Shown in pieces: positions 1 to 62,019 of a DNA stretch of 64,000 nt (position 1 is its first letter; every line of letters begins with the position of its first letter). The notes under the pieces are model-generated. The model saw nothing but the letters and a program-made list of their open reading frames with translations, was not told where the DNA came from and did not search any database. The translations under genes and the position numbers were made by a program. Source of the stretch: a virus; the IMG/VR virus record IMGVR_UViG_3300042449_001328, positions 1 to 64,000 of that record; one strand, 5' to 3'.

Positions 1-187
1 TGCAGGAGAATTGTTGTATCAGTTCTGCGTCCTGATCATCTAGTATCAGATCAAAAGTTTCATCCAATATCCTATCGTCTTTTGCCTCAATAACACAATA
101 GTTATTGTCACCTATATTGAATACCTTGTTTGGTTTAAGCCAAGTGTGAGCAAGATTGTTATCTATTAGGTATTGCGAAATATTCAT
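1..187 (-). CDS. 5' part of a gene running off the window (MNISQYLIDNNLAHTWLKPNKVFNIGD...); possibly a replication gene such as a DNA polymerase
   Basis: Open frame from ATG at 187, overlapping the integrase stop (ATGA), to the window edge. Function guessed only from its position after helicase/primase. Confidence 0.55.
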   Translation of the reverse strand, partial: MNISQYLIDNNLAHTWLKPNKVFNIGDNNYCVIEAKDDRILDETFDLILDDQDAELIQQFSC

Positions 188-996
188 ATTGGCAATTGAA
201 CTTTGGATAATAATTTAGTGGATACATGTGTGTAAATTTCAGTGGTTTTTACATTACTATGCCCTGCTATCTTTTGTATCAACCTTAAATCAGTACCATT
301 TTCTAACAGGTGGGTAAATGAAGAATGCCTTAAATTATGGATACTGGTTTTTGTATCAATGTACTTTTTGTAAATCTGTTGACAGCTTCCTATTGAATAT
401 TTGGGTGAATTCTGGCCATTAAATAAAAATTCTACTGGTTTGTAATTTACAAAATAAAATCTAAGTAGCTTTAATACTGTTTCTGACAATGGAACTATTC
501 TATCCTTTCTACCTTTTGCATTGTTTATATGAATCAACATTCTTTTTGAATCAATATCGTTTATTTTTAAATTAACAATTTCTGACACCCTTAGCCCTAC
601 TGAATAAGCTAGGGTTAGTATCGTCTTATGTTTTAAATTTGGTATAATAGCTATCTTTCCTATTAAATCTTGTTGGTCTATTACCCTAGGCAACTTCTTT
701 TCGCCACGGGGTCTTTTTAGTTTATAAAATTTTTTAGGTTGAGATAATATCTTTTCATAATAAAACTTGATGCAATTAATGATCTGATTTTGTTTTGTTG
801 AAGACAATTCGCCATTGTCCAATAATTTATTCAAATAACCAACTATCTCATCATAAGAAATGTGCCTTACATTTTTATTTTCAAATGAGTTTACAAATTC
901 CTTAAAATAAGACAAATAAACTTTTATAGTGTTTTCTGAATAATTCATTCGTTGAAGTGTGGTAACATAATCTTCAAACAACTTTAAATTTTTCAT
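184..996 (-). CDS. Tyrosine recombinase, integron-integrase-like (SAM-like N-terminal domain plus catalytic domain)
   Basis: Catalytic residues R (GLRVSE), K (AKGRKDR), HxxR (HNLRH), H (AGH), Y (TEIYTH); N-terminal YSENTIKVY. No obvious IntI-specific insertion before box II. Confidence 0.92.
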   Translation of the reverse strand: MKNLKLFEDYVTTLQRMNYSENTIKVYLSYFKEFVNSFENKNVRHISYDEIVGYLNKLLDNGELSSTKQNQIINCIKFYYEKILSQPKKFYKLKRPRGEKKLPRVIDQQDLIGKIAIIPNLKHKTILTLAYSVGLRVSEIVNLKINDIDSKRMLIHINNAKGRKDRIVPLSETVLKLLRFYFVNYKPVEFLFNGQNSPKYSIGSCQQIYKKYIDTKTSIHNLRHSSFTHLLENGTDLRLIQKIAGHSNVKTTEIYTHVSTKLLSKVQLPI

Positions 997-1018
997 ATAG
1001 GATAGTGTTGGTAATCAA

Positions 1019-1213
1019 TTAGTTAAATGGACATTGATATATATGATTGTTGGTGGCAATGCCGCCCCGCTCCAATGGTGCTTCGGGCATGGAAGCTATT
1101 CCTAGCACCGCCCACGCTTCGGGGCGGCACTGTTCGCGCCAACGCGCAAAGGCCGACCCAAGCCCACCAACATGGGGTTTAAAACATAGGGCAACATTTA
1201 GCGCGTTTTTCAT
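1019..1213 (-). CDS. Small cassette ORF (starts in the loop of site 1, crosses the core as ...KPHVGG...)
   Basis: 64 aa ORF with the same geometry as the other cassette ORFs; GC-rich, coding status uncertain. Confidence 0.35.
   Translation of the reverse strand: MKNALNVALCFKPHVGGLGSAFARWREQCRPEAWAVLGIASMPEAPLERGGIATNNHIYQCPFN
1031..1062 (+). other. Putative attI-like primary recombination site
   Basis: Lone GTT core (GTTGGTGGCAATGC at 1049) just upstream of the integrase start, with no preceding hairpin arm. Its complement CCACCAAC (1164-1171) closes the first cassette. Confidence 0.55.
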
Positions 1214-1867
1214 AGGTAGTTTCGTGGGAAGGTTTTAGAATTAATTGCCGCCCACGCGCGAGAAAGAGATAACCCAAACAAACGGGTTTTCATTCCATGA
1301 TTGTTGACCGTTGACTTTTTCCCATAACATTTGCCATGCAAGTTTAGGTGTACTGGATGTTGGTGAGCAAGCCCCTTCCTTGTAGCAATCAGCAATAGAA
1401 ATACCTTGCAGTTTTTCTGCGCTTATATCTTCAATCCTTAACTTTATTCGGCAAGCCTGTTTTGGCATAAAAATGCTTGGTTTCCATCTCCACTCTTCCA
1501 TAGTTTCCCAATCAGGGTCTGTGGCCCTGTAAACATATCCGTTATCTTCTCCAGCAAAATCAACGTATTGCCATGTTTCACGCACCCAAAGTATGTCTCC
1601 AATTTGTCCGTATGGGCATTGTGTTTTGATTGATTCCCACCACTTCGGGTTACTGGCGGTTTCCATCCATCCACGAAACGGTTCCTTTACTATCCTTCTT
1701 GTTTGTGTTTTGCTGCCATCTAAAATAGCCCTTACCATTGACCCAGAAAATAAAATTGGGTGTTCCTTTGCCCGCCCTTCGGCAATTAATTCTAAAACCT
1801 GTTCGTTTTCCATAGTTATTTTATCTGTTTAGTTGCCCTACGATTTTAAACCCCTTATACATTATGC
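1165..1867 (+). repeat. attC-like site 1 with a giant (~635 bp) loop
   Basis: CACCAAC 1165-1171; arm GGGGTTTAAAACATAGGGCAAC 1174-1195 pairs with GTTGCCCTACGATTTTAAACCCC 1832-1854; ATTATGC 1861-1867. Confidence 0.75.
1241..1813 (-). CDS. ASCH/PUA-like phage protein
   Basis: EHPILFSGSMVRAILDGSKTQTRR, CPYG..GD.LWVRETW, WKPSIFMP and W..NPFVWVISF motifs of a widespread phage family. Confidence 0.8.
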   Translation of the reverse strand: MENEQVLELIAEGRAKEHPILFSGSMVRAILDGSKTQTRRIVKEPFRGWMETASNPKWWESIKTQCPYGQIGDILWVRETWQYVDFAGEDNGYVYRATDPDWETMEEWRWKPSIFMPKQACRIKLRIEDISAEKLQGISIADCYKEGACSPTSSTPKLAWQMLWEKVNGQQSWNENPFVWVISFSRVGGN

Positions 1868-2092
1868 GTAATGCTCCGAATACTTCTGTTCAAGTTCAAG
1901 CATTTTATCCCATATCTCTTGGTGGTGGACACTATCCCAAGCACATAATCTTGGACTTTTCTTTTTCTCTTGCAAAAATGCTTTCAGTTCATTGTAACAA
2001 TTAGCACTACGCATAACATCGGCTATACGCAATTGCTCTTCGTATTTTTCAACGGTTTCTTTTGCTTTTAAGTAATCTTCTTTTTTTATCAT
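1862..2092 (-). CDS. Cassette hypothetical protein
   Basis: 76 aa; start lies in the loop of site 2; stop lies in the ATTATGC core. Confidence 0.7.
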   Translation of the reverse strand: MIKKEDYLKAKETVEKYEEQLRIADVMRSANCYNELKAFLQEKKKSPRLCAWDSVHHQEIWDKMLELEQKYSEHYA

Positions 2093-2141
2093 TTTGTTTA
2101 ATTTTTAAGTTCGCAACTGCGTATAGCCGTAGCCGTTAGGC
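2011..2141 (+). repeat. attC-like site 2
   Basis: GCATAAC; CGGCTATACGCAATTGC 2020-2036 / GCAACTGCGTATAGCCG 2113-2129; GTTAGGC 2135. Confidence 0.85.
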
Positions 2142-2145
2142 ACAA

Positions 2146-2385
2146 TTAAACCCAACTCTTCCAATGTGTAGGTGTGTAATAAACATACATACTACCATCA
2201 GGCAACCACCAAAGTTTACCATCAAACTTTAATTCTTGTTCGTTCCTTGAACCGTTTTCATCTTCAATTTTGGTCATCATCACCCTATTTTTTGGTGGAT
2301 GCTCTTCTGAAATTTTTTTCCACATAATAAAATTAACTGTGCCTAACAACGTATATAATGGATACGCCAATAAGCGGTTATACAT
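2146..2385 (-). CDS. Cassette hypothetical protein (DUF551-like, W.....PP...PTHW)
   Basis: MWKKISEEHPP...YTPTHWK resembles the phage DUF551 family; the true start may be the internal Met. Confidence 0.65.
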   Translation of the reverse strand: MYNRLLAYPLYTLLGTVNFIMWKKISEEHPPKNRVMMTKIEDENGSRNEQELKFDGKLWWLPDGSMYVYYTPTHWKSWV

Positions 2386-2434
2386 TTATTTAAGTTTATC
2401 GGTGGCGTACCCATCATATACGCAACCGTTATAG
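2341..2434 (+). repeat. attC-like site 3
   Basis: GCCTAAC; CGTATATAATGGATACGCCA 2350-2369 / TGGCGTACCCATCATATACG 2403-2422; GTTATAG 2428. Confidence 0.85.
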
Positions 2435-2457
2435 GAAATTTTATTTTTCCCATCGCA

Positions 2458-2808
2458 CTACGAAAAGTGCGAGAAAATGAACAGATAAGGTTCTGCAATT
2501 GGTTCATCTTCTTTCAGCTCAAAAACTTCACGGTATTTTGATTTTACCTTTTCTGCGTCTAAATTTTTGAAATCCAAGTGGACAAAATCCCATCCTTCAT
2601 ATTTATCTCCACCGCTTTCAATCCGTATTCCAAATACGTTATATTGTCCACACATTCCATCGCTTACAAGTGTAAATTCTTCGCCTTGATGTCCTTCAAT
2701 CATTGGCAAAAATTTATCATCCGATAAATCAATTTTACCGTTTTCGTTTTTTAGTTCATAAGGTAATTTATACCCGTAAACAATGTAATCTGTTCTATCT
2801 ACTCCCAT
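2458..2808 (-). CDS. Cassette hypothetical protein
   Basis: 116 aa ORF filling the cassette between sites 3 and 4. Confidence 0.75.
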   Translation of the reverse strand: MGVDRTDYIVYGYKLPYELKNENGKIDLSDDKFLPMIEGHQGEEFTLVSDGMCGQYNVFGIRIESGGDKYEGWDFVHLDFKNLDAEKVKSKYREVFELKEDEPIAEPYLFIFSHFS

Positions 2809-2850
2809 TTTTAAATTTGTTTAAGCCAACCCACAAAAAATAAAACTATC

Positions 2851-2947
2851 CTATAACACGGGTTTGGCGTAATGCCACCAGATAGTTTGTGCCTAAATTT
2901 AAAGTTCGTGCAAGGTGGCACTAACGCCAAGCCCGAAATCGTTAGGC
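2851..2947 (+). repeat. attC-like site 4
   Basis: CTATAAC; CGGGTTTGGCGTAATGCCACC 2859-2879 / GGTGGCACTAACGCCAAGCCCG 2914-2935; GTTAGGC 2941. Confidence 0.85.
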
Positions 2948-2960
2948 ACAATAAAATTTG

Positions 2961-3185
2961 CTACCCAACGCACTCCCATTCAACATCAGGAAATTGTTCA
3001 GCAAATCTTTGTTTCTCCTCTGCCTGTCCCTGCTTTACTTCTTTCAATACCTGTTCTTTTGGTATTTCTAAACTTGGCTTATAATTGCTTATACAAAATG
3101 GGTTTCCAGCCCACAAGTTCCAATATTTACGCCCTTTCTTTAACCATGCGTAGTCAGCTATTTGTTCAAATCCTTTAAAATTCAT
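2961..3185 (-). CDS. Cassette hypothetical protein
   Basis: 74 aa ORF filling the cassette between sites 4 and 5. Confidence 0.7.
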   Translation of the reverse strand: MNFKGFEQIADYAWLKKGRKYWNLWAGNPFCISNYKPSLEIPKEQVLKEVKQGQAEEKQRFAEQFPDVEWECVG

Positions 3186-3204
3186 AATCGCAAATTTTAC
3201 AGAT

Positions 3205-3296
3205 GCCTAACATGCGGTAAAAGTAAGCCGCAGAAAGGCTGTTACTAAATTTGAGCAGTCTACAAAGCGGCCTACTCTTACCGCCAACCGTTAGTG
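3205..3296 (+). repeat. attC-like site 5
   Basis: GCCTAAC; GCGGTAAAAGTAAGCCGC 3214-3231 / GCGGCCTACTCTTACCGC 3267-3284; GTTAGTG 3290. Confidence 0.85.
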
Positions 3297-3302
3297 GTAA
3301 TG

Positions 3303-3524
3303 CTATAAACACACACCATTAAATGTGTTCAAATAGTTTTTGAACTTTATATAAACATCAAGCATATCGTCAACATGTATTTGTTGCTTATCAAAAACTA
3401 TTTTAGCACTACCTGTATCTAACACAACATTTGGTGGTGTTACCGTAAAAGCACTACCACTAACAGCAAGTATATTCAATTGCTCACTTTCTTGGTTATT
3501 TTCAATTTTATCTTTCATACCCAC
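3303..3524 (-). CDS. Cassette hypothetical protein
   Basis: 73 aa; start in the loop of site 6; crosses the arm and core as QLNILAVSGS. Confidence 0.65.
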   Translation of the reverse strand: MGMKDKIENNQESEQLNILAVSGSAFTVTPPNVVLDTGSAKIVFDKQQIHVDDMLDVYIKFKNYLNTFNGVCL

Positions 3525-3590
3525 TCTTATTTGTTAATTAAACTTTTGTTTTTCAAAGTCGCAACTAATTATACTTGCAACTCGTTAGCA
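3458..3590 (+). repeat. attC-like site 6
   Basis: CACTAAC; GCAAGTATATTCAATTGC 3466-3483 / GCAACTAATTATACTTGC 3561-3578; GTTAGCA 3584. Confidence 0.8.
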
Positions 3591-3594
3591 GCCA

Positions 3595-3846
3595 TTAAGG
3601 TAGCGTTTCCAATTCATCGTGACTAAATGTTAAACAAGCTATTGTCCCTTGCGGCACTTGTGGACAAAACTCACCCCACATATTCCATGCCTTGCCATCT
3701 TTTGCAACCACTTGACAAGCAATGAATCTATCATCAGGCAATCCTTCAAGTGCCTTTTTAAGAGTTCCAACCGTATGAAAATTAACGGCTGCTAACACAT
3801 TATTTGCGTCAGTGGGGGTTTCGTGCTTTTTAGAATCTGTCTGCAT
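3595..3846 (-). CDS. Cassette hypothetical protein
   Basis: 83 aa; start in the loop of site 7; crosses the core as DANNVLAA. Confidence 0.7.
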   Translation of the reverse strand: MQTDSKKHETPTDANNVLAAVNFHTVGTLKKALEGLPDDRFIACQVVAKDGKAWNMWGEFCPQVPQGTIACLTFSHDELETLP

Positions 3847-3922
3847 AATTTAAAAATTTGTACTGTTAATAATCTTTGGTGGTGTAACGCCCCACCGAAC
3901 GCAAATAATCGTAACGTTACCT
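3790..3922 (+). repeat. attC-like site 7
   Basis: TGCTAAC; ATTATTTGCGTCAGTGGGG / CCCCACCGAACGCAAATAAT (ends 3909); GTTACCT 3916. Confidence 0.8.
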
Positions 3923-3929
3923 GCAAGTG

Positions 3930-4142
3930 CTACATTTCGGTTTCAAATAAACTTGGTGCAGAAAAACTTTTATTAAAATTTCCCACTCTCTTATTTATAA
4001 TTTCAAAATACTTTTCGTCAATCTCATAACTCACAGTATCAAAACCTAATTCATTTGCAACTTTGCTTGTCGTTCCGCTTCCTCCAAACGGGTCAATAAT
4101 TGTTTCGCCTTCCTTTGCAGTTATCTGTATAAGATGGGTGTT
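3930..4142 (-). pseudogene. 5'-truncated DNA N4/N6-methyltransferase fragment
   Basis: Manual translation IQITAKEGETIIDPFGGSGTTSKVANELGFDTVSYEIDEKYFEIINKR...ETEM* (motif I DPFxGSGTT); in-frame stop upstream and no start codon. Confidence 0.8.
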
Positions 4143-4253
4143 TCAAACGCCCCCGCGCTGGTTTAATTTTAAAAAAGTTTTAGTTTGTATTTCATATTTA
4201 AGTTTGTGCTATGCCTGTTTCAGCAGCTACACTTGATACATTAGTGGCAAGTG

Positions 4254-4412
4254 CTACATATTGCTATCCAAAAGTTTTATGCTTCTGTATATCGGTATAA
4301 ATAAAAGCCAATAGGTTGTTACAAGATGTACCTCTAAATGAGATTTATCTTTAAAACCAGCATCAAAACTTTTCACATACATTTTTCTTTTGTGTTCTGT
4401 TCTTTTTATCAT
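4254..4412 (-). CDS. Small cassette protein (52 aa, below the ORF-track cutoff)
   Basis: MIKRTEHKRKMYVKSFDAGFKDKSHLEVHLVTTYWLLFIPIYRSIKLLDSNM* fills the cassette 4240-4444. Confidence 0.65.
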   Translation of the reverse strand: MIKRTEHKRKMYVKSFDAGFKDKSHLEVHLVTTYWLLFIPIYRSIKLLDSNM

Positions 4413-4437
4413 TTTCGTTTAATTTAACCGCACCAGC

Positions 4438-4571
4438 CACTAACATTGCATTGCAAAAAGCAGGGCTGACGTAATGCTTTCAACAATGGGAATACTATTA
4501 AACTTCACCTATAACGCATTGGGCAGACGTATTCCAATTCCCCTGCCTTCTGCAATGCTTTGCCGTTAGCG
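4438..4571 (+). repeat. attC-like site 9 (site 8 survives only as a right half, ATTAGTG at 4240)
   Basis: CACTAAC; GCATTGCAAAAAGCAGGG 4448-4465 / CCCTGCCTTCTGCAATGC 4541-4558; GTTAGCG 4565. Confidence 0.85.
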
Positions 4572-4577
4572 GCAACC

Positions 4578-4793
4578 CTAAACGACCGCAGTAAACGTGG
4601 TTAAAGATTTACGAACGGTTACTTCTTCGCCTTTTTCGACTTCATTGTAAGCAAGAATAGCTTTTGCCTTTCCTTTGGTAATTATACCACTTGCCCAAGT
4701 TTCATCTTGATGGGTAAGTTGCATTCTAAATTTCCCTTTTCGTTGAGATACTACATCGTAAATCTTTCCAACTTCTAAATTTTGATTTTCCAT
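4578..4793 (-). CDS. Cassette hypothetical protein
   Basis: 71 aa ORF filling the cassette 4565-4828. Confidence 0.7.
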   Translation of the reverse strand: MENQNLEVGKIYDVVSQRKGKFRMQLTHQDETWASGIITKGKAKAILAYNEVEKGEEVTVRKSLTTFTAVV

Positions 4794-4899
4794 TTTATTT
4801 TGATTTGTGAAGAAGGGCAGCCGCTAACAACGTGCTTGTGCCATTTAAAAATGCGTCAAAGTTCAGTGCCTTTAATCAAGTTCGGTGAGCAAAATAAAT

Positions 4900-5289
4900 T
4901 TAAACAACCCCACCGCACTCCTTCGTAGAAAGTTCGTGTTGCAATTGAAAGTACACGTCAAAGAGTAATTCAATTTCCTTTGCCCGTTCGACAATTTTTC
5001 CTTGTATAATCTCACGGAACTTGTCATAGTTTTCAGGCTCTATTTTATTATGCCAAGAGTGTTTCCATGTGTCCATATCAATTACTATTTTGATAAGTTC
5101 TTTTAAGGGGTCATCACCAAAACAATTTGGTTTCTCCCACCTTAATTCAAACCCGTCTTTGATAATGTACTCTTTGTCTCCTGAAAACGGTCTTACAATT
5201 TCGTAACGTTTCGCAGTCCCTTCAATTGTTGTACCTCTAAGGCCAACACCAATTTTACTAAGTTGGTTGATAAATTCTAAATGATCCAT
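4900..5289 (-). CDS. Hypothetical protein in the array
   Basis: 129 aa ORF. Confidence 0.7.
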   Translation of the reverse strand: MDHLEFINQLSKIGVGLRGTTIEGTAKRYEIVRPFSGDKEYIIKDGFELRWEKPNCFGDDPLKELIKIVIDMDTWKHSWHNKIEPENYDKFREIIQGKIVERAKEIELLFDVYFQLQHELSTKECGGVV

Positions 5290-5608
5290 CGCTCAAGTTG
5301 TTTAAATTTATTTTGTTTAGTATTTCAAATTAATATCGTGACACACAATCCAAAGCCTTGCTATCCGTGCCTAGTTTCGGGTTGGGTGCGCCAGCTGCTA
5401 ACAACGTGTTTGCCTCATGGCTGAAAGTGCTATTTGATATTTTTGTTTTCATCTATAAAATTTATCTGTTCAAAAATCTATCCGTTACCCACCGCATTAG
5501 AAACTACTAACTCATTTCCGGTGTGCTTCGTTTCTTTTTCCACTTGGCGGTATCATGTCTATTTTGCGCTTTACTCATCTCTATTTATTTAGTTCGTGTT
5601 CGGCCATT

Positions 5609-5863
5609 TTACTGACACATATTTGCGGCTACATTAGTTGTAATTCTACTCAACACCATTCTGTTTAAGATACTCATTGAACATACCTTTCTTTTAAGTC
5701 CTTCAATCATATAATCTTCTAACTGCTTGTTAAGTTGAGAAGAAAGCCTACCTATAACATCCGCTATAAGAATATTTGTTCTTTCTGCATTCATTGGTTG
5801 TAATTTAAAGTTAAGTAGTTCTAAATCCGCGTAATTGAAAAAGCGTCTGAGTTCGTATTTCAT
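5609..5863 (-). CDS. Probably chimeric or degenerate cassette ORF
   Basis: Crosses core 5752 as ILIADVIGR; the flanking cores are not complementary. Confidence 0.35.
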   Translation of the reverse strand: MKYELRRFFNYADLELLNFKLQPMNAERTNILIADVIGRLSSQLNKQLEDYMIEGLKRKVCSMSILNRMVLSRITTNVAANMCQ

Positions 5864-6008
5864 AAGTCAGTCCATATAGGTGTAGCCACAAAATTGTAAT
5901 CTCAATCGTTTACTTTTACAAAATGAGAATCGCCAGTCATTTTCATCAAAGCCGTAAAGGTCTCCTCTGTAAAGAATAAACTCGCATAGCCACTTTCCAT
6001 CTTGGTTA

Positions 6009-6224
6009 CTACAACAAAGGAATTTTGTGTATAAGTGTTTCATAATTTCGTTTACATTTGTTAGTGGCAGTTAACTCACCGCCAACATTGTGTTTGAGTA
6101 ATTTTCGTTCACGTTCCAAAACAACAGCTTCATCAAGTAATGAAACTATATATCTAACATCAATCATTGATACTTCGCCAATTTCTCCAGCTATCAATAT
6201 TTGTTCTTTAGTATATTTTTTCAT
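6009..6224 (-). CDS. Array-distal small ORF coupled to the primase stop
   Basis: ATG overlaps the primase TGA; crosses the cores as HNVGGELTATN. Confidence 0.55.
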   Translation of the reverse strand: MKKYTKEQILIAGEIGEVSMIDVRYIVSLLDEAVVLERERKLLKHNVGGELTATNKCKRNYETLIHKIPLL

Positions 6225-7195
6225 AAATAATCTAAGTTTATTTGCATAAAATTAACACTTTTTGTCATAAGTTCCAATGATTGTTCCTCATTTATATCTC
6301 CAGGGTCAAATCCGTTTAAATGAGCTACCCTTACCTCAAAATGGGTTGATAGGTATGCAGCTATTGTTTTTACTTTATCCAAAACGTCAGCTTCAAACCA
6401 TAACCAAATGACAGTCAAGCCTTTATCCTTTAGTAGTTGAACTTGTTGTTCACTTATCTTAGCACCAAATGTAGCCACGCACTTTAACCAATCTTGAGTG
6501 TGTAACTGTAGATTATAATCTGTCTTTGTCTTTGACAATATACCTTCCACTAGGATTACATCAGTTGTTTTGCCTTTTATTATTTCATCGTATCCAAACA
6601 GCATTTTACTGAAATCACTCATCGAGTTCTCATAACGTAGGTACTTTTTGCCCCCTGTTTTTTTTATTTCTTCATTGTAAGCATCTATCCATGCTTTGCT
6701 TTTTATAGACCTTGACACATATCCTGTTATCTTGCCTTCCATTTCAACTAGGAAAGTAATGTAGTCTTTCTTTAGTCTTGATACTCCTATCTTATATTGC
6801 TCGAATTGATAGGACTGCATTCCTCTTTCGTTTTGAAGATATTCGTTTTCAAATACCCTCTTCCATCCTACAGGAGGTTGAACTTCTGGTAATTCTTGTT
6901 GCTGTATTATGTCTTCACTTGTTTCAAATACATCTAGCAATAATCCTTCTGGGTCTATTTCTCTTTCTTGTACAAATTCTTTAAATTTATTTAAGTGTTT
7001 TAAAAGTGTGTATATATTCCCCGTGAAGCCACATTTGGACTTTCTGAAGCAACTGAACGGGTGGTTATTTTCTACAATAGAAATTCCAAACTCATCATGA
7101 CCACACTGAGGGCATAACCCGTAAATATCTTTACCGTCAGAACTGGGTCTTGGATTGGATATGAGTTGCTGCAACTGGTCTTTTGTGAGTTTCAT
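6221..7195 (-). CDS. DNA primase (Zn finger + TOPRIM)
   Basis: CPQCG...C...C zinc finger; VILVEG TOPRIM motif; DPGD. Confidence 0.85.
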   Translation of the reverse strand: MKLTKDQLQQLISNPRPSSDGKDIYGLCPQCGHDEFGISIVENNHPFSCFRKSKCGFTGNIYTLLKHLNKFKEFVQEREIDPEGLLLDVFETSEDIIQQQELPEVQPPVGWKRVFENEYLQNERGMQSYQFEQYKIGVSRLKKDYITFLVEMEGKITGYVSRSIKSKAWIDAYNEEIKKTGGKKYLRYENSMSDFSKMLFGYDEIIKGKTTDVILVEGILSKTKTDYNLQLHTQDWLKCVATFGAKISEQQVQLLKDKGLTVIWLWFEADVLDKVKTIAAYLSTHFEVRVAHLNGFDPGDINEEQSLELMTKSVNFMQINLDYL

Positions 7196-7424: not shown

Positions 7425-7868
7425 TTATTGTTTGCTTAATTTTGTTTCATTTGATTTTATTCTAACTTTTAAGCTGTGTAGTGGGCATGTTACCCATCCA
7501 TCGCTATCGCATTTTTCGTTTGACAAATCGTATCCTTTATGTGGACATTTTAATTTTTCTAAATTTTTGTAATTTAATTTTGAATTAGATATAAAGGTGT
7601 CTGGTGTTCTATACAAATGTTCTTTAAAATACATCCTTCTTTTTCGGTAACATATTTTTATTAAAAAATTTGGATCGTTTTCAATTCTAGTGGTATTTAT
7701 TTTTTTCAATAAATTCTTATGATGTTTTTTGCTTATAAACCTAAAATCTACATGATAGTGTGGTGTCATTTGACCGTTCTCTTTATCGTGATGCAAATGA
7801 TTGTATATAGGCACAATTAGCCTTTCAGGAAAAGATAATACAGCGCAAGGGACTTTGTGTTTTATCAT
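7425..7868 (-). CDS. Protein with a C-terminal Rieske-like [2Fe-2S] motif
   Basis: CPHKGYDL...VTCPLH (CxH...CxxH). Confidence 0.65.
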   Translation of the reverse strand: MIKHKVPCAVLSFPERLIVPIYNHLHHDKENGQMTPHYHVDFRFISKKHHKNLLKKINTTRIENDPNFLIKICYRKRRMYFKEHLYRTPDTFISNSKLNYKNLEKLKCPHKGYDLSNEKCDSDGWVTCPLHSLKVRIKSNETKLSKQ

Positions 7869-9250
7869 TTTTGCTTTGGAGCGTTCTTTATTATCTTGTT
7901 ATTGATGGGGTCCCAAAATCTTTTGTTGGTCTCTTGTATGTCTATAAATCTGCCTTTATTTCTATCTTGTGCTATATGATAAGTAGATTCCCATGAAAGT
8001 ATTTTTTGAAACCTGAATGCCTCTTCATGTATGCGCATTATGTCTTTATCATTTTCATCGTCTGTTTGATTTAAAGTAATTGTATAAGCAAAGGGGTCTA
8101 CTGTAGCTTTTAAATTTGAAATATTCTCTCTTGTGATAACAAAATTAGGATCGTTGTAATCTTTTTTCTCTATACTAGATGCTTGAGTGGCAGTGGCGCA
8201 AAATATTTTAAACTCAGTTGCTATGTTGACAATTTTTTCCGCAACAGCTAATTTTTTAGCCCTCTCCCCCTCTGCATTAGTTCCATATCTCTTTCCGTCA
8301 CCTGGATCAAATTTTTCAAGATAATCAAAAATTGCCCATTTTATATTATACTCCTTCATTAAATCCAATATAGCTTGCCTACACTCTGCTATGGAAGCAG
8401 AATTAAATTGTTCATAAGAAACAATGAATATTTCCCCACATTGAGCTAGGAAAGATTTTCTAGCCTTTTCAATAGTCTCTACATCTTTGCCTGTCAAATC
8501 CCCTTTCCTTATATCCATCATAGGCACACCAGTCCACATTGCATCATAAGCATCTTCAACTTCTGATTTTGTACCTTCAGCTTGAAAATGAATTCCATTA
8601 TGCCCCCTGAAAGCCAAATTGTGACCTATTGATCTCAAACAAGTACTTTTACCTACTCCTTTTCTAGCAATCACTAACATTGCCCTTCCAGGTTCAACCC
8701 CTCCCTTAGTGTGATAATCAAAAGCAGGTATGCCAATAGGCCACTTTACATTTGTAAAATCCCTTTGCTTTCTTTCTTGTTGCCGTCTATCAAAATCAGA
8801 AAATACTCTAGTGTGAAGTTTTGAAGTTAAACAAAATGAGTTTATCTCTTTGCTCTCCTTCTCAAGCAGCAACATAGCTTTCTCATGTTCCTGCTTATTG
8901 TACATCTCCTTAACGTCTTCATGTAGTTTTTGAAACCTGCCTTTCTTGATGAAAGATTCAAAGGACTGCATGATCTGGTCTTTACTATCATGTATTGAAG
9001 TTTCCCTAATGTTGTTCAGTACATTTATCAAGGAAGGTTTTTGAGGCAAGTTTTGAGATAATGTCCCTAAAGTAGGGATTTTTGAATGTATGCCATGATA
9101 GTCAAATATGTATTTAAAAACTTCTTTATACTCCTCTCCTTTTATGAAAGAATAATTCAAATGCTGTTTGACAATCTCTGTCACATCTTGACTAGATAGA
9201 CATAGCTTTGCCAGCTCGTTGAGATAGTTGCTTGAAAGTTTATCTGACAT
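7865..9250 (-). CDS. Replicative DnaB-like helicase
   Basis: Walker A ARKGVGKST, catalytic E in QAEG, Walker B IFDYLE, TATQ. Confidence 0.88.
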   Translation of the reverse strand: MSDKLSSNYLNELAKLCLSSQDVTEIVKQHLNYSFIKGEEYKEVFKYIFDYHGIHSKIPTLGTLSQNLPQKPSLINVLNNIRETSIHDSKDQIMQSFESFIKKGRFQKLHEDVKEMYNKQEHEKAMLLLEKESKEINSFCLTSKLHTRVFSDFDRRQQERKQRDFTNVKWPIGIPAFDYHTKGGVEPGRAMLVIARKGVGKSTCLRSIGHNLAFRGHNGIHFQAEGTKSEVEDAYDAMWTGVPMMDIRKGDLTGKDVETIEKARKSFLAQCGEIFIVSYEQFNSASIAECRQAILDLMKEYNIKWAIFDYLEKFDPGDGKRYGTNAEGERAKKLAVAEKIVNIATEFKIFCATATQASSIEKKDYNDPNFVITRENISNLKATVDPFAYTITLNQTDDENDKDIMRIHEEAFRFQKILSWESTYHIAQDRNKGRFIDIQETNKRFWDPINNKIIKNAPKQK

Positions 9251-29934: not shown

Positions 29935-31902
29935 TTAAGAAATTGGGTCCAAGAGCAAGCCCGAAAACAGAAGAAAACTAACTTCATAGTTGGGTATCAC
30001 ACCGTAATTTATAAAGTAAGCATCTCCCTGCACTGTTACTGTAACATTCTGGAAACTGATAATAAGATTATCTAACTGATCTGTCGCTACTTTGCTTGTC
30101 AAGTATGCTTCAACCCATGTTTTTACATCTTCAGCAGAAAGAGTGTTTCTGTTTGCACCGTTTGGTTTTTTAAGCAAAGTCCTCTTACCATTAATTATCA
30201 ATTCTTTGTTCAACTGTCTAACGATACGAGCAAGTTGTTTACTTGAAGTGCTTCCGTCTGGATTGACTAGATATGAATTGATCTGTAAGGTGTTTACTCC
30301 TTTCACTACTTCAAATGCTGAACCGTCCGCTCTTGTCATCAAAACTCCAGCGTCTAGTCCCGCAATAGCCTCATTGTCTCTCAACTGATGTACAACTCCA
30401 TCTACGCCTATGTTCTTAAATGTCAAAGGTACTTGAGGTGCAAGTCCCGCCTCTCTGCCCATCATTACAGCTGCGTGGTAGATTGATTGATAGTTCTTTA
30501 ACAGTCTACCGTTGAAATCGGTTCTTTTTACCCCTGAATGAACTAAGGTAACAAATTGGCTATTGAACGCTTGTGCCATATTCACAGAACTTGTAACACC
30601 TGAATTCCACTTAGAACTATCATTGCCTCCACCAATATATACATCTGGTTTGATTTTAGCTGCGGTAGCATAAGCCTGAATTGCTAAGTTGTTTGCTGAC
30701 CTTGCGTTATCCCCCCAATTGTCTGCTAAGATAAAATCATAAGTGCTTCCAGCAATTGCGTCAAGGGCTTGTGTCAAATACTGAGATCCATAAGTATCTG
30801 TACCGCCTGTAAACATTCTAAGAGCAGAGTTGGAACTCAAATCTCCTGCATTCACCAATCCTGTACCTGCTATTGAACTTGATTGTCTTTCAAAGTAAGA
30901 CTGGAAGGTAGGGTCAGAATCCATCCACGCAATCAAAGTAGAAATGTTTGAGAACTCAGGCGACTGCGCAACTACTTCTGCGGTTGTGCTTAACTCGCTC
31001 ACTCCATCATAAGGAGTGCCGTCACTAATGTCTGTACTTAGCCCTCTGAAAGTTCCCCTTGAGAACTGCATAATAAACCTTGTTGGGTCTATCACACCAG
31101 CAATCATTCTTGCAGCATATCCTCTGGTCAATCTTGTTCCTGTTACACCGCCTGTATATGCTCCAGATATTGATCCTGCACCTGTGGCTGTTGCGACCAA
31201 TACTGGTGTGATTGTGTTGGCTGCTATTCCAAGCCCCCTTGGAGCTGAAAATGTTACAGTAGTACTTGTGCTGGACACTACTGCCGATATACCTAATGAA
31301 TTGATTGAATTAACAAGACCTGCTACAACGGATGCTATATTGTCCCCTACTTGGGTAGCGTATGTGGCAATTGTTTCACCGCTAGATGTGATAGTGAAAG
31401 TACTTGTTCCTACAGTACCTGCGTTTGAAATGGTTACAGTAGCTGCACCTCTAGTTTCATCGCCCATAACACCATTCCCTACCCTGCCTTCTGCTCTATT
31501 TCTTAAAGTAAAAGTTCCTCCGTTACCACCTCCACCAGTGAACGTATAAGATACTGAACTTGGTGTAGTCAATGCTGCTTTGATGAATGTCAAAGATGAA
31601 GCACCTTGAGTAGCTCCTCCTCCTGGAAAGAATATTGGACTAGATAAAAACCAAAAAATACCTCCGTGTTGATGTGCTTGTGCCGAACCTACGTCTGTGA
31701 ATGTGTATATTGAATCTAGGTTTTGTTTTAACGTTCCAGCTATACCAGAACCTCCGCCAAAAAAGCGGGAGCTGCCCGTGTCGATAATTAAACAATTCCC
31801 GAACTCTAATGCTACGGCTGGATTTTTTATACCGGATTTTACTGTTGAGTAAGCTCCGGGAAGAGAAATTTTACGTCCATCGAAAAAAACTGATGTAGCC
31901 AT
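29935..31902 (-). CDS. Tail sheath protein
   Basis: N-terminal F.G.....PGAYS; C-terminal PLTFK, GVNT motifs. Confidence 0.88.
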   Translation of the reverse strand: MATSVFFDGRKISLPGAYSTVKSGIKNPAVALEFGNCLIIDTGSSRFFGGGSGIAGTLKQNLDSIYTFTDVGSAQAHQHGGIFWFLSSPIFFPGGGATQGASSLTFIKAALTTPSSVSYTFTGGGGNGGTFTLRNRAEGRVGNGVMGDETRGAATVTISNAGTVGTSTFTITSSGETIATYATQVGDNIASVVAGLVNSINSLGISAVVSSTSTTVTFSAPRGLGIAANTITPVLVATATGAGSISGAYTGGVTGTRLTRGYAARMIAGVIDPTRFIMQFSRGTFRGLSTDISDGTPYDGVSELSTTAEVVAQSPEFSNISTLIAWMDSDPTFQSYFERQSSSIAGTGLVNAGDLSSNSALRMFTGGTDTYGSQYLTQALDAIAGSTYDFILADNWGDNARSANNLAIQAYATAAKIKPDVYIGGGNDSSKWNSGVTSSVNMAQAFNSQFVTLVHSGVKRTDFNGRLLKNYQSIYHAAVMMGREAGLAPQVPLTFKNIGVDGVVHQLRDNEAIAGLDAGVLMTRADGSAFEVVKGVNTLQINSYLVNPDGSTSSKQLARIVRQLNKELIINGKRTLLKKPNGANRNTLSAEDVKTWVEAYLTSKVATDQLDNLIISFQNVTVTVQGDAYFINYGVIPNYEVSFLLFSGLLLDPIS

Positions 31903-31912: not shown

Positions 31913-32818
31913 TTAATTTTGTTTTAATTTATTGTAATCTTCTAAGTACATCCATTTAAATCCACAAGCAGTTATGGCTTTTGAATGAATTACTCGTGAG
32001 ACAGATCTATTTTTAAAAAATCTAACAGCATCACTTATGCAATCCCATTGCTTAACAAAAGAATCATCCATATTTAACTGGACAATTGATTTAGCCACTG
32101 GACTATTCTTACCAAATTGTTTTAATTTTTGTAATTCTGTTTTCTTTGTTCCAATCCAACCTCCATTTTTTATCCTTGATAAAACCATTTTATCAATTAC
32201 ATCTTTTGACCTTTCTCTTCCTTTTAATGGAGTCACCCAACCTTCTGGTCTAATAGGTTTTTTACCTAAATGAGATTCACTTAATTTTCTTCTATGTTCA
32301 TCTGAAAATTTTCTACCTTTAGTTGCCCCAACTCTTCCAGTTAAAGTTTTAGATATTTTCTTTTTAGTCTCTTCTGAAATAGAGAAATCATAAGTATGTT
32401 TTCTAATCTCTTTAGTTCTTTTCATCTTAGCGATACTTTCTTCAGTAGGCTTTCTACCTTTCTTCAAAAGGGACATCTTTAAACACGACTCTTCGGTATG
32501 CTGTATTCCTTTATTAAAAGCCACTCCCCCTGGAGCTACATTGTAAAACAAGTCTGACTTAACTGCTCCAAAATAGTCGATCCAGTAAATTTCTGATTCA
32601 TTTAAATCTTCTTTGTCTACACAATACTGAAGAATCTCTTTTTGAAAATTTTCAATGCCGTATTTATTAACTGATTTTTGAAAAAACTTACCTGACCCTA
32701 TATAGTTTTTATTACGAGCAGAATTCTTATGCTGCCCAATATACTTCTTCCCATTGACCAAATTTGTGGTACAATAGATTGTTCCAAAACAATTATCTTG
32801 ATTAGGCAGTAAGCTCAT
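31913..32818 (-). CDS. Free-standing GIY-YIG homing endonuclease (NUMOD3/NUMOD1 repeats)
   Basis: GTIYCTTNLVNGKKYIGQ; SEETKKKIS and SDEHRRKLSESH repeats; terminal TACGFKW. Confidence 0.9.
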   Translation of the reverse strand: MSLLPNQDNCFGTIYCTTNLVNGKKYIGQHKNSARNKNYIGSGKFFQKSVNKYGIENFQKEILQYCVDKEDLNESEIYWIDYFGAVKSDLFYNVAPGGVAFNKGIQHTEESCLKMSLLKKGRKPTEESIAKMKRTKEIRKHTYDFSISEETKKKISKTLTGRVGATKGRKFSDEHRRKLSESHLGKKPIRPEGWVTPLKGRERSKDVIDKMVLSRIKNGGWIGTKKTELQKLKQFGKNSPVAKSIVQLNMDDSFVKQWDCISDAVRFFKNRSVSRVIHSKAITACGFKWMYLEDYNKLKQN

Positions 32819-35750: not shown

Positions 35751-38381
35751 TTATTTTGCCCTTATCTCTACTGTATTTATAGTTATGCCTGTTCCCGCTG
35801 TAAGAACTATCAATCTTACAAACCGCCAAATTTCATTTGCTACTTTATAGTGAACAATGCCAACTACTGAGGTCATATTACCACCACCATGATTGTGCCA
35901 AATTGAACCGTCTGTCGAAAATTGCAATCCTAATGTCACTGCTGTTGTTTGTGCTGAAACAGATAGGACAAAATTAAAATTAGTGCAACCTTCAATATAA
36001 TACACTGGAGTTGTTGAATTGAGTGTGCTCAGATTTATAGACCTGTCTATAAATTGTAAAAACCTACTTGTTGAATCACTGGTCTGCAATCTATTGATAG
36101 ACCTAGTAAAAGAAGGTGACGTTCCTCCTATTGTTTGCACATATCGAACCCTATTGCCGCTCAATGATAATTTTGGAGTCCTGTAAACACCAGTGGTTGT
36201 TATCCTAGGTAGATCATAAACCCTATACCAACTGGTACCGCTATCATCGCTTTCCTCTATGGATATATCGTAGGTAGGGTTTGTGCCGCTAACAGCGGTT
36301 ACTGGTATTACCAATTCGTAACTTAACCCAAATGAAGGCGTTATAGCTGCTACTGTATTACTAGATGTAATGGCTGCACTTGCTACGTCTGCAACTATTG
36401 TTGGGATAGGGGATGGAGTTAACCCAATTAAATTTGTTCCAGCCGCTAAAGCTGGAAGTGTTGTAATTGCATTGATATTCCAAGTACCCGCTTGGCTAAT
36501 ACCCGCTGGAACTGTCACTGCCAATGAGCGAGACAAATCGCTAGAACCGTGCTGATTGGCTATCTCAACTATGTGCCTAGTGTATTCCATCTCGTGTATG
36601 AAGTGTACACGCACATCCGTGCGCCTAATAACAGCACCGCCGCAATTGACAGAAACAAAATCAGGGCCTATTGATTCTAATTCGAGAGTAGTAGTGTTTA
36701 GTCTCAGTACTTTGTATGCCCCATCATATAATCCCATTGAAATTGCATCACAACCGTATAATTGGAATGTTTCACCTGGTAAAGGAGTAGTCCAGTTAGC
36801 ATTCCCGATTAGCGTCAATACGTTATTTATTCGCGATATGCTTTGCACGTTTTGATTTAATAAACCTGGGGGAATTACCGATCCTTCTACTTTCCAAACA
36901 CCGCCTCCAGCCGAACTGGCTGTGACCGCTCCGCCTATCACAATAGTAAATTCAGTAGGCGAAACAATTGAAGCAACAGCAGTTTGGGCCGTTAAGTTTG
37001 GGAAGTTAACTATGTCGCGAACACCATAAATCTGTACTTGCTGACCTACGATTAGATTATGATCTACGTCTGTAACCACGTTTGCCGTGGTTGTTCCTGT
37101 TTTTGATATAGAAACAATTTTGGCAATCGGAGTAGTTAAGTTAGAAAGGTTTTTTGCCCTCACTCTAATCTTATAATATTTTTCTTCGTCTGGTATTCCT
37201 TGAGTGTATTTCAAAGGAGTGCTGGAAGCCGCAATTGAATCTGACAGTCTTGGTATCAACAACATTTCTTGCATCGTAGCTTGCAACTCCAAATGTGAAG
37301 CTGCATTAAAAGCATCTGAATACGGTGAAGTGTTTGATTGGGTCGCTGTTGTTGTATTTACTGTTGAGTTTATACTCCTGATGCTTGCACCATTCCTTCT
37401 TGCAAACCAAGAGGCATTTGTAGCGGTAGTGTTTTCAAACAATACGCCTACTGCGTTATCAGCTCTTTTTACATGATCTGCCCATTCAACAAATCCGCCA
37501 GCGTTGTAAGTTCCGTTTGCCAACGTACATGGGACTGTGATTGAAAGAGAAGAAACAATGGTGACCACAACAGGACCAACGTTAAGTCTTTTTTCTTCAT
37601 TACCTTTTATAACAACACGATCTCCACCGTGCAAGTTATGTGGGGACGCAAAGTTTATAGTTGCTACGTTGCTGGTTATTGTAATTGTTCCTAAAATAGA
37701 TAAATCAGCAATTGGTGAACCTACTTCAATAAGCCCTGCATTATCACATCCTACTAAAGAGACTTCAACCTCTTGACCTATAATTCTTTGCGACATTGAA
37801 AGAGCCGCAATAAACCTAGATGGCAGTTTAAACTTATCTTTTGATATTAACTCGTATTCTGAATTTGGCGTCAAAGGCGAGAGTGAAATCTTTAAGTAAG
37901 AAGACCCAGCCGTATCCCCTCCTCTGGCAACAAACGAATCGGATTGGTTTGTCCATATCTGATCCCATACGGTCAGATCGGGAGATCCAGTGATAAAACC
38001 ATCTCTGAATTTTCTCATTGCGTTGCCTGTTGCAACAGCATCGTTTTCAGTCAGTTTACCATATTGAGAATTGCCGTCTGTGTCTTTAAAACCAGCCATT
38101 TGAACTTTTGCTGGAACTGCTGAATTTACTAAAGAGGTAGCGTCACTTTCTTCAACAAATATTTGAAGCACGTCTGTACTGGACATACTAGAAGTGTTGT
38201 AAGCCAAAGTCAACACGTTGCCTGTCAATGAAGCACCTAACAGATTGTCGGCAAAATTATATACAACAATGTTTCTGGTAACGTTAGTGATCAACAGCAA
38301 TTGATCTAATGTTATAGCGTTACTAAAAGTTATTGTTCTATTAGTGGCGTTAAATATATAATCTGTTCTTTTTACTTTCAT
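35751..38381 (-). CDS. Large virion fibre/decoration protein
   Basis: 876 aa; N-terminal YIFNA...TITF...LLLITNVT domain; repeated H.L..GD.V.I.G beta domains. Confidence 0.65.
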   Translation of the reverse strand: MKVKRTDYIFNATNRTITFSNAITLDQLLLITNVTRNIVVYNFADNLLGASLTGNVLTLAYNTSSMSSTDVLQIFVEESDATSLVNSAVPAKVQMAGFKDTDGNSQYGKLTENDAVATGNAMRKFRDGFITGSPDLTVWDQIWTNQSDSFVARGGDTAGSSYLKISLSPLTPNSEYELISKDKFKLPSRFIAALSMSQRIIGQEVEVSLVGCDNAGLIEVGSPIADLSILGTITITSNVATINFASPHNLHGGDRVVIKGNEEKRLNVGPVVVTIVSSLSITVPCTLANGTYNAGGFVEWADHVKRADNAVGVLFENTTATNASWFARRNGASIRSINSTVNTTTATQSNTSPYSDAFNAASHLELQATMQEMLLIPRLSDSIAASSTPLKYTQGIPDEEKYYKIRVRAKNLSNLTTPIAKIVSISKTGTTTANVVTDVDHNLIVGQQVQIYGVRDIVNFPNLTAQTAVASIVSPTEFTIVIGGAVTASSAGGGVWKVEGSVIPPGLLNQNVQSISRINNVLTLIGNANWTTPLPGETFQLYGCDAISMGLYDGAYKVLRLNTTTLELESIGPDFVSVNCGGAVIRRTDVRVHFIHEMEYTRHIVEIANQHGSSDLSRSLAVTVPAGISQAGTWNINAITTLPALAAGTNLIGLTPSPIPTIVADVASAAITSSNTVAAITPSFGLSYELVIPVTAVSGTNPTYDISIEESDDSGTSWYRVYDLPRITTTGVYRTPKLSLSGNRVRYVQTIGGTSPSFTRSINRLQTSDSTSRFLQFIDRSINLSTLNSTTPVYYIEGCTNFNFVLSVSAQTTAVTLGLQFSTDGSIWHNHGGGNMTSVVGIVHYKVANEIWRFVRLIVLTAGTGITINTVEIRAK

Positions 38382-60878: not shown

Positions 60879-60885
60879 ATTTTTG

Positions 60886-61300
60886 TGGACCTGAGCGGAT
60901 TCGAACCGCTGTCCAGATAGCATACAATACCACGATTACTTACAGCTTGTTTGGTTTAAGTCCAACAACTCACTTTTAGGGCTACCAGCAGTTTTTCAAC
61001 TACCTACAACCTCCACCATTCGATTGCCATTACTTCTTTTGTGTCATATCGAAAATCCCCTTTGTTTTACTCATTAAGCAGCAAGCTCTAATTCTTGCTC
61101 TGCTTCAACTCTATTAAAGTTAAAGGCTGAGAAATCAAAACCTACTTTTGCATCTTGACGATTGCCAATAGTACCACCTAGGATACTGTTAGCGATTAAT
61201 TGATTGTCAATTGTTTGTGTATGCATATTTTCAGTAGGTACAGCATACTTCCCTACGCTGATTGTGTTACCAATTACTACTGTCAATTCCTGTCAGGCCC
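60886..61300 (-). ncRNA. ssrA: tmRNA
   Basis: 5' GGGCCTGACAGGAATTGACAG; 3' AGCGGTTCGAATCCGCTCAGGTCCA with a G3:U wobble; internal tag frame ending ...ELELAA-TAA-TGA. Confidence 0.9.
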
Positions 61301-62006: not shown

Positions 62007-62019
62007 TTAATGTTTTTAG

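Follow-up and report, generated by a model that had tools for sequence, protein, structure and literature searches.

A candidate integron-type cassette array with an adjoining Xer-like recombinase in a phage genome from IMG/VR, and related arrays in Bacteroidota chromosomes

The first 64 kb of the 89,689-bp IMG/VR virus record IMGVR_UViG_3300042449_001328 (estimated to be 91% complete; these 64,000 nucleotides are called the window below) carry an array of small gene cassettes, separated by hairpin-forming sites, beside a gene for a 270-amino-acid (aa) tyrosine recombinase. We conclude that this region is probably a gene-capture platform of the integron type that is owned by the phage, and the adjacent recombinase can with good confidence be proposed, from its sequence and position, as the catalyst of cassette recombination. 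The sequence-only reading had suggested an integron-like capture device within a phage replication operon, and this suggestion held up: cassette ends are complementary, breakpoints fall in TAAC, and the sites co-occur with the recombinase clade. The system works like an integron, yet it fails the defining integrase test and differs in site geometry and gene orientation. It likely belongs to a second integron-type lineage, found in Bacteroidota and in phages, which uses an Xer-like recombinase without the IntI domain, is turned around in its phage version, and would be missed by standard integron finders because they demand that domain.

Results

Structure of the site family

An IMG/VR search with the recombinase returned 69 loci, 47 of them at 45 to 63% identity. 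The 97 distinct sites listed on the recombinase strand had a common form: YTAAC is followed by a spacer of 4 to 6 nucleotides (nt), most often GGTTG, then by a stem of about 20 bp whose loop measures 16 to 98 nt, and, after a further 0 to 3 nt, by GTTA. When 41 short-class sites were aligned, TAAC and GTTA were invariant (41 of 41), and 19 of the 25 predicted pairs showed compensatory changes. The proportion of paired cells was 97.5%, compared to 76.2% in shuffles (0 of 500 as high), a percentage that is inflated because the sites had been chosen for stems before alignment. The covariation score was 0.556, compared to 0.160 in shuffles (again 0 of 500 as high) and 0.06 to 0.14 in slid-structure controls. 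Canonical attC sites, the cassette sites of integrons, have an internal loop of about 5 by 5 to 6 nt with extrahelical bases, whereas the internal loop between the R and L stems was here 5 by 1 to 2 nt and the R stem of the closed cassette reached up to 15 bp. The consensus fold had a one-sided 4-nt bulge, and the spacers of the 97 sites (4 to 6 nt on one side, 0 to 3 nt on the other) likewise bear out the earlier claim of a geometry unlike that of canonical attC. The hairpin of the coding strand was more stable than that of its complement in 110 of 118 sites because of conserved G-T pairs, and no T-run followed the stems of the aligned sites.

Sites and cassettes of the window

The whole window was scanned with a pattern for AAC-spacer-stem-loop-stem-spacer-GTT, which returned eight rows. 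These gave six distinct sites, at 2011-2141, 2341-2434 (in two registers), 2851-2947, 3205-3296, 3790-3922, and 4438-4571, with plus-strand spacers of 1 to 3 nt on the left and 4 to 6 nt on the right; a row at 6152-6289 with spacers of 3 and 0 nt was taken as chance. A site at 3454-3587 was missed by the pattern and recovered by an inverted-repeat search and by a covariance model, R1, built from 38 sites from other phages and 3 window sites. Run on the window with filters off, R1 returned 14 rows at E<=10: seven minus-strand sites within 2006-4568 (E 1.3e-17 to 0.18; four of the seven outside the training set), two weaker plus-strand echoes of these sites, and five rows elsewhere (E 1.7 to 7.2). 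Over the 89,689-bp record, there were six matches at E<=0.1, all in 2003-3930. No R1 site was found outside the array in the whole record, and none elsewhere in the window had an E value below 1.

The sequence-only reading had counted eight complete and about five partial sites, separating segments of 120 to 430 bp that mostly carry one small open reading frame (ORF), a description that survived closer inspection. Seven of the complete sites were found by the covariance model and the eighth is Site 1, which has a 635-nt loop; at least four decayed sites were seen by eye (half-sites at 4815-4842 and 5394-5414, an ATT core at 4240, and a mini-palindrome at 6060-6086); and, by the ORF list, the inter-site segments of 120 to 430 bp each carry one small minus-strand ORF. 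The two half-sites folded no better than shuffles (z 0.42 and 0.14) and were missed by R1, so that the sites degenerate toward the primase gene into non-folding half-sites. All array ORFs lie on the integrase strand and point at the integrase (Table 1). The same orientation predominated in the 58 viral inter-site segments, in which the longest ORF was on the site strand in 49, on the opposite strand in 2, and ambiguous in 7. Most cassette genes start 10 to 30 nt past GTTA and have no leader of their own, so expression by read-through from the replication operon is likely.

Some cassettes form a subclass in which about 95 nt of leader follow the site and the conserved blocks AGTACGG.TT, GAAC.GAACC, and GTGCGGTGG precede the start codon (for example, L005:8350-8445, L009:19052-19150, and L015:1724-1817); this leader may be a promoter or a binding site. 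We also considered GTGCGGTGG as a general per-cassette promoter and rejected it, given that only 9 of 118 sites had it in the 150 nt downstream, against a background of 2%; it marks the subclass.

Cassette ends and shared units

The flank after GTTA paired with the flank before the next TAAC at 8 or more of 11 positions in 38 of 76 adjacent site pairs, compared to 130 of 5,000 random pairs (2.6%) and 3 of 120 same-site pairs. In the window, the unit ends 1861/2017, 2135/2347, 2428/2857, 3290/3464, 3584/3796, and 4240/4444 were complementary at 12 to 14 of 15 positions and the ends 4565/4828 at 13 of 15. As far as sequence can tell, complementary ends are the trace that would be expected if a unit is circularized at its site.

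One 315-nt unit was shared at 100% identity between two loci (L001:6562-6876 and L010:2131-2445), from the ATAACG of one site to the TAACG of the next, and had differing neighbours on both sides. Among the matches listed, eight further shared stretches started in TAAC or no more than about 20 nt from it, and all continued past the hairpin. Since the shared stretches begin at TAAC and pass the hairpin into the gene, the coding-strand unit is a site followed by a gene. Read on the plus strand, a window unit takes the classical cassette form, TT...gene (reverse)...AAC-hairpin-G, with the crossover presumably between the G and TT of the core.

When the window array was compared by blastn and tblastn to the other 150-odd loci, the only matches were two similar sites (both in L002), the 190-aa gene described below (three loci), and a methyltransferase fragment (three loci). 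The window primase and helicase had no match in any other recombinase locus, so cassette order is not comparable with a close relative. Logan contigs from other lake runs carried the joints 4905>5300 (two runs) and 5626>6225 (one run, with 90 nt on the shorter side). These contigs are short, and both the stretches that they leave uncovered and the joints with sides of 21 to 41 nt (1172>4173, 2138>3913, 1136>1788, 3556>4879, and others) are hints at most; the only solid-looking Logan signals are at 1049, where contigs have loose ends, and at the joints 5626>6225 (side 90) and 7428>7858 (side 199).

A docking site beside the recombinase gene

About 50 nt upstream of the recombinase ATG, nearly all related viral loci show the same arrangement, in which the last cassette ends in TAAC and is followed by TA..ATATAT(C)AACA. 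In the window, the ATG is 53 nt from the G of GTTGGTGG at 1049, which agrees with the earlier observation that the 5' end of the gene abuts a lone GTT core at that position. The docking site is hairpin-less and has only TAAC in common with the cassette sites. We compared six pairs of viral loci (L012/13, L012/15, L013/15, L010/11, L016/17, and L021/22). On the integrase side of TAAC, 791 to 800 of 800 nt were identical (99 to 100%), whereas the DNA beyond TAAC was unrelated in all six, with only 28 of 92 to 81 of 200 nt identical, so that relatives differ in content, as the sequence-only reading required. On these alignments, such one-sided identity at TAAC is the signature of what would be an attI-like insertion point, and the swapping of DNA beyond TAAC beside a conserved recombinase side makes the docking site a hot spot for cassette change. 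Logan contigs from three lake runs matched the window from exactly 1049 rightwards and had other DNA to the left.

Next to the docking site lies a 122-nt unit whose minus strand folds at -37.4 kcal/mol (z -3.2). The depth of lake metagenome contigs was 3 to 22 in bin 901-1200 and 0 to 6 in the adjacent bins, and this hairpin unit is far commoner in lake metagenomes than the phage itself. A mini-unit related to it, on another viral contig (L362:9990-10080), shares its end logic and its conserved loop core. No Rfam family matched at E<=1 in window positions 1-6500, the 122-nt unit included. One possibility is that this cassette supplies a small RNA or an element to which a protein binds.

The loop of Site 1, 635 nt long, encloses a complete gene for a 190-aa protein (1241-1813), and its cores, spacers, and arms are otherwise normal. 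The protein matched phrog_874 (E 1.1e-62, function unknown); its nearest named clusters in the Atlas include "ASCH domain protein family" (score 0.95), and it is possibly ASCH-like. Homologues of the gene in L038, L033, and L050 are not nested in a hairpin, so cargo in the loop is a single case. A perfect 20-nt inverted repeat (1231-1250 and 1780-1799) also brackets the gene and overlaps both its first codons and its stop.

The recombinase lacks the IntI insert

The 89.7-kb record contains no other tyrosine recombinase and no serine recombinase. The enzyme scored under the cut-off of every curated family, with its top family score, 186.6 bits, to NCBIfam XerA_Arch (cut-off 220). Its score to the integron integrase model TIGR02249 was 161.6 bits in two stretches (cut-off 265), with model positions 176-253 unmatched; scores to NF011946, XerD, and XerC were 95.3, 153.9, and 147.2 bits (cut-offs 435, 329.6, and 335). 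Pyrococcus XerA (4a8e) was collinear with the recombinase over residues 7-265 (E 1.7e-37). The alignment to VchIntIA (2a3v) placed residues 14-175 and 213-267 on chain residues 13-174 and 260-314 and left out chain residues 175-259, opposite 37 query residues; the N-terminal part, residues 14-175, aligned to IntI at 63 bits. About 48 residues are therefore missing where IntI bears its specific insert, in line with the earlier claim that the insertion is absent. The catalytic residues R136, H220/R223, H246, and Y255 were invariant across 24 relatives. The family is labelled XerD in public annotation, where more than 7,500 proteins match at E<=1e-30. Public recombinases 82 to 89% identical to the query exist, and a metagenome scan found no recombinase above about 63% identity over the full length.

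The sites co-occur with the recombinase clade

R1 sites were present in 37 of the 45 viral loci with a recombinase at least 45% identical to the window's, as expected by the sequence-only reading, which had foreseen an association of the sites with this integrase clade. Seven of the eight site-negative viral loci hold less than 1.3 kb upstream. By a count made by eye, 219 of 236 R1 rows lay on the recombinase strand, and 16 of the 17 others were echoes of the same sites; the recombinase-strand sites lie upstream of the gene, except for a second array in L009. In the converse direction the association was weak: 10 of 80 stretches fetched by the site motif held a recombinase homologue, in all ten cases downstream and on the same strand. 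Chryseobacterium phage MA9V-3, the cultured phage nearest by capsid, had neither sites nor recombinase.

A blastn search of GenBank phage records with a common site gave one weak match only, to an uncultured 462-kb phage. The recombinase family also occurs on viral contigs of 180 to 464 kb, and among cultured phages its closest homologues (34 to 37% identity) are flavobacterial phage proteins that are annotated as integrases and come without an array. The Freya phages of Polaribacter (44 to 49 kb, with a shifting integrase position) were considered as a case of cassette variation and rejected, as Freya_10, whose integrase is 35.6% identical to the window recombinase, is arrayless and has one dubious hairpin.

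A sister system in Bacteroidota chromosomes

When one genome per species was scanned, 80 loci were found, mostly Bacteroidota, with recombinases that are 42 to 55% identical to that of the window, have the same length, and also lack the insert. R1 arrays lay beside the recombinase in 28 of these loci. Unlike the phage arrays, all but one lay past the stop codon of the recombinase and on the other strand, and the genes preceded their site, as in canonical cassettes; a similar layout is that of the "inverted integrase" integrons known from Treponema and Chlorobi. Maribacter and Winogradskyella are among the carriers, and arrays counted by eye had 13 sites on a Flaviramulus contig (L126:10800-20100) and 11 in Flavobacteriales bacterium ALC-1 (L137:11590-20730). 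In a quick recombinase tree with a midpoint root and no IntI or Xer outgroup, a branch with 100% support in the Shimodaira-Hasegawa-like approximate likelihood ratio test (SH-aLRT) parted 78 chromosomal recombinases from all 44 viral ones. Two metagenome-assembled genome contigs grouped with the viral recombinases, and one of these has the phage layout. No IntI scored above cut-off in any of 14 control genomes. The IntegronFinder 2.0 report gives only one complete integron in Bacteroidetes proper (PMC9024848), and from this near-absence the chromosomal system seems to escape IntegronFinder.

Cassette contents and the source phage

One cassette ORF (3930-4142) is a C-terminal DNA methyltransferase fragment (phrog_67, E 8e-19, profile positions 293-354 of 743). 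ORF 3595-3846 matched phrog_35443 (E 8.8e-08), ORF 4900-5289 weakly matched phrog_10228, and the remaining cassette ORFs had no match in the profile-library searches. Among cultured phages, Chryseobacterium phage MA9V-3 has the nearest capsid (54.5%), with Bacteroides phages next, and the array region is present in Logan contigs from lake-water metagenomes; because of both, the host is most likely a freshwater member of Bacteroidota.

The window also encodes a transfer-messenger RNA (tmRNA; tag peptide EAEQELELAA; 60885-61300), a tRNA-Thr (62019-62092), and a 798-aa protein (49040-51436) with a NUDIX hydrolase match (phrog_1198, residues 440-578) and a weak portal-protein match. A 147-aa ORF at 7425-7868, between the helicase and the next gene, was missing in a related-strain contig from one lake run (joint 7428>7858, shorter side 199 nt). 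Since R1 places no site there, this gene turnover outside the array takes another route.

Table 1. Coordinates of the array, its sites, and backbone genes in the window
Feature	Position	Strand	Remarks
Tyrosine recombinase, 270 aa	184-996	-	Pfam PF00589 (Phage_integrase) and PF13495 (SAM_4)
attI-like docking site (putative)	997-1049		Between recombinase ATG and core 1049 (cut after the G of GTT); coding strand CAAC, cut, then AATCATATATATCAATG
122-nt unit, ORF-less, GC-rich	1050-1171		Ends GTTGGTGG and CCACCAAC; body of cassette nearest integrase; strong internal hairpin
Site 1	1164-1863	-	R'' 1164-1171; 23-nt arms 1174-1196 and 1832-1854; 6-nt spacer; ATT variant core 1861
attC-like site, long-loop class	2006-2138	-	GTT core 2135 (cut after G); R1 41.0 bits, E 3.1e-06 (window), 57.8 bits (record); heuristic pattern score 12; outside training set
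attC-like site, short class	2333-2442	-	Core 2428; R1 93.1 bits; in training set; minus strand -17.0 kcal/mol (z -2.96), plus strand -13.6 (z -1.51)
attC-like site	2843-2955	-	Core 2941; R1 65 bits; in training set; 82% identical to L002:7338-7439
attC-like site	3197-3304	-	Core 3290; R1 74.2 bits; in training set
attC-like site, long-loop class	3450-3598	-	Core 3584; inverted-repeat pair; R1 20.6 bits, E 0.09 (window), 38 bits, E 2e-5 (record); outside training set
attC-like site, long-loop class	3782-3930	-	Core 3916; 81.5% identical to L002:8670-8786; R1 19.7 bits (window), 33.4 bits, E 2.2e-4 (record); outside training set
attC-like site, long-loop class	4441-4568	-	Core 4565; R1 19.3 bits, E 0.18; weakest intact site; heuristic score 12, spacers 3/6; also inverted-repeat pair
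Nine cassettes	1862-4565	-	GTT or ATT cores (cut after first base) 1861, 2135, 2428, 2941, 3290, 3584, 3916, 4240, 4565
Cassette ORFs, one each	1862-2092, 2146-2385, 2458-2808, 2961-3185, 3303-3524, 3595-3846, 3930-4142, 4254-4412	-	
Decayed distal array	4566-6224	-	ORFs 4578-4793, 4900-5289, 5609-5863, 5867-6043, 6009-6224
DNA primase	6221-7195	-	phrog_47, E 4e-27; backbone gene bounding array upstream
DnaB-like helicase	7865-9250		
Major head protein	41965-43470		Further virion proteins also encoded

Discussion

Proposed mechanism

Read on the coding strand, each cassette begins with a folded site: TAAC (with the proposed cut between TAA and C), a 5-nt bulge resembling GGTTG, about 20 bp of stem closed by a loop of variable size, 1 to 2 nt, and GTTA. 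The small gene mostly starts 10 to 30 nt farther on and is followed by an end complementary to the start of the cassette. We propose that the recombinase would bind the docking site as duplex DNA and, at the cassette sites, hairpins that extrude from the coding strand, cutting within TAAC. Cassettes would be excised as circles by recombination of site with site and inserted at the docking site by recombination of site with attI. The catalytic role of this enzyme, the single-stranded substrate, the strand used, and the formation of circles are parts of this scheme that we infer. Since insertion would take place at the docking site, the newest cassette would lie next to the recombinase gene, and the oldest would decay beside the primase gene. 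Most cassette genes would lack a promoter and be read through from the replication operon.

Several observations weigh against this scheme. The enzyme is without the domain that the literature (PMC4792948, PMC8138268) ties to the single-strand pathway and holds to be specific to, or essential for, integron function. The crossover is placed only within the invariant TAAC. The cassette genes of the window are almost without homologues across the other 150-odd loci, so movement of its own cassettes is read only from the short Logan contigs. Seventy of the 80 viral stretches fetched by motif show no recombinase, although 20 of these 70 hold at least 6 kb downstream, and Polaribacter phage P12002L has sites and no annotated integrase; with sites lacking a recombinase in view, action in trans or by another enzyme is possible. 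Prior selection for stems inflates the paired percentage and leaves the compensatory changes unaffected, and the conserved G-T pairs could have their role in an RNA hairpin of the transcript instead of a DNA hairpin.

Alternative explanations

The array could be an orphan cluster of attC sites lacking an integron integrase (CALIN) that is served in trans by a recombinase of the host chromosome or of another phage, with the adjacent recombinase an ordinary lysogeny or dimer-resolution integrase that is merely a neighbour. We consider this unlikely. It would account for the arrays with no recombinase in view, in P12002L and in the 70 motif-fetched stretches, and Bacteroidota chromosomes do bear a sister recombinase clade together with arrays of the same site family; the resemblance of the enzyme to a simple Xer-type recombinase, and the arrayless state of its closest cultured homologues among flavobacterial phage integrases, point the same way. 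A merely neighbouring integrase, however, would not explain why the position, strand, and spacing to the ATG of the docking site are kept across unrelated phage backbones or why the variation falls exactly at the docking junction. Viral and chromosomal recombinases form two clades, divided by the fully supported SH-aLRT branch, and each has its own architecture. Lysogeny also fits poorly with a phage that has its own primase, DnaB, and tmRNA and with a recombinase family found on viral contigs of 180 to 464 kb, a profile that is not typical of temperate phages.

The hairpins could instead be transcript elements (terminators, stabilisers, or processing sites), with modules shuffled by homologous recombination at the repeats, as has been proposed for the promoter/stem-loop modules of T4-type phages. 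Their position on the coding strand just upstream of each gene, the conserved G-T pairs, which would be stable G-U pairs in RNA, and repeats similar enough for homologous exchange are all in keeping with such a role, which we nevertheless regard as quite improbable. Homologous exchange does not predict cassette-specific complementary ends, and the docking site is a breakpoint although it is hairpin-less and shares only TAAC. The stems are followed by no T-run, the bacterial arrays bear the same sites on the non-coding strand, and IntI1 recombined a P12002L site in a published assay (PMC9892861). That phage and bacterial DNA were joined into a chimera during assembly is scarcely credible. The GC content rises from 0.30 in bin 1-1000 to 0.43 in bin 1001-2000, and the recombinase gene is at the very start of the contig, as might be seen in a chimera, but Logan contigs from at least five lake-water runs, three of which are not marked as a possible source of the record, contain 92 to 98% of the words sampled from 150-6300, and dozens of independent contigs show this architecture again.

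Comparison with integrons and Xer systems

The gene-capture platform favored here resembles classical integrons in its recombinase gene, its adjoining docking site, and its array of one-gene cassettes, as well as in its complementary cassette ends, its breakpoints at the core, and a better-folding strand that encodes the integrase. Like classical attC sites, its sites are imperfect palindromes; their outer cores are ..YTAAC and GTTAR.., and the loop varies. Judged as an integron, it has palindromic AAC/GTT-core hairpin sites and an attI-type adjoining site, whereas it fails the tests of IntI domain and models, of canonical attC fine structure, and of gene direction. The enzyme lacks about 48 residues at the place of the classical IntI insert and is below the TIGR02249 and NF011946 cut-offs, and as no protein passes the IntI models, the locus would be at most a CALIN by IntegronFinder rules. 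The hosts also differ, being here phages and Bacteroidota.

In canonical integrons, the folding attC strand also encodes IntI. The platform of the window is canonical in this respect: the recombinase gene is on its folding strand, with the docking site at the 5' end of that gene. In classical integrons the cassette genes run away from the integrase and Pc drives their expression; here they are on the folding strand, toward the integrase, with the site ahead of the gene, so that the polarity of integrase, attI, and folding strand is canonical and the cassette genes alone are inverted. The bottom strand of attC is the one described as recombining, and strand choice as setting cassette orientation (PMC8946536).

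The enzyme is also like Xer recombinases, with XerA_Arch its top full-length family and Pyrococcus XerA collinear with it, and a folded single strand can be a substrate of Xer enzymes, CTX phage integration being an example. It differs from them in falling under the family cut-off, in being phage-encoded, and in adjoining a cassette array and conserved docking site instead of a dif site, for which no search was made.

The statement of the sequence-only reading that integrons are bacterial systems is outdated, as phage integrons and attC clusters have been published. Among 10,705 phage genomes, Qi et al. (2023; PMC9892861), using IntegronFinder and HattCI, identified 3 complete integrons, 1 In0, and 17 CALINs, and IntI1 recombined five of six tested phage attC sites, including one of P12002L; that report lists two P12002L sites and names no cognate integrase or attI for this phage. 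We found four R1 matches in P12002L at E<=1e-3 (29997-30067, 32212-32292, 38024-38101, and 38868-38947), on the strand of the flanking methyltransferase and Mom-like genes. Since P12002L carries R1 sites, the site family has probably already been glimpsed in print as "attC". The P12002L CALIN is like the window array in its R1-type sites and in its methyltransferase cargo (a methyltransferase fragment in the window), and differs in that the window array has its own recombinase and docking site. We found in the literature searched no description of the recombinase-plus-array system, its docking site, or the Bacteroidota arrays. Phage attC clusters were thus already known; what appears new, from sequence comparison, is the link of the sites to a recombinase clade, the docking site, and the Bacteroidota arrays.

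Significance

If this interpretation is correct, integron-type capture would extend to Bacteroidota, and phages would be owners of the machinery, not passive carriers; such gene capture may then be more widespread and less complex than has been assumed. A natural family that keeps the attC/attI logic without the IntI domain would directly test the necessity of that domain and would show how integron systems arose from Xer-type enzymes. Integron software would require a new integrase profile and a new site model, and a 270-aa recombinase with sites of about 85 nt could make a useful tool. P12002L, a cultured virulent phage, offers a ready experimental handle. In phages, cassettes would be read together with the phage operon and the recombinase gene. 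Even large virulent phages would thereby have a site-specific route of their own to acquire and swap small genes, among them DNA methyltransferases and further probable counter-defence genes, and this would provide a concrete mechanism for the quick turnover of phage accessory and counter-defence genes.

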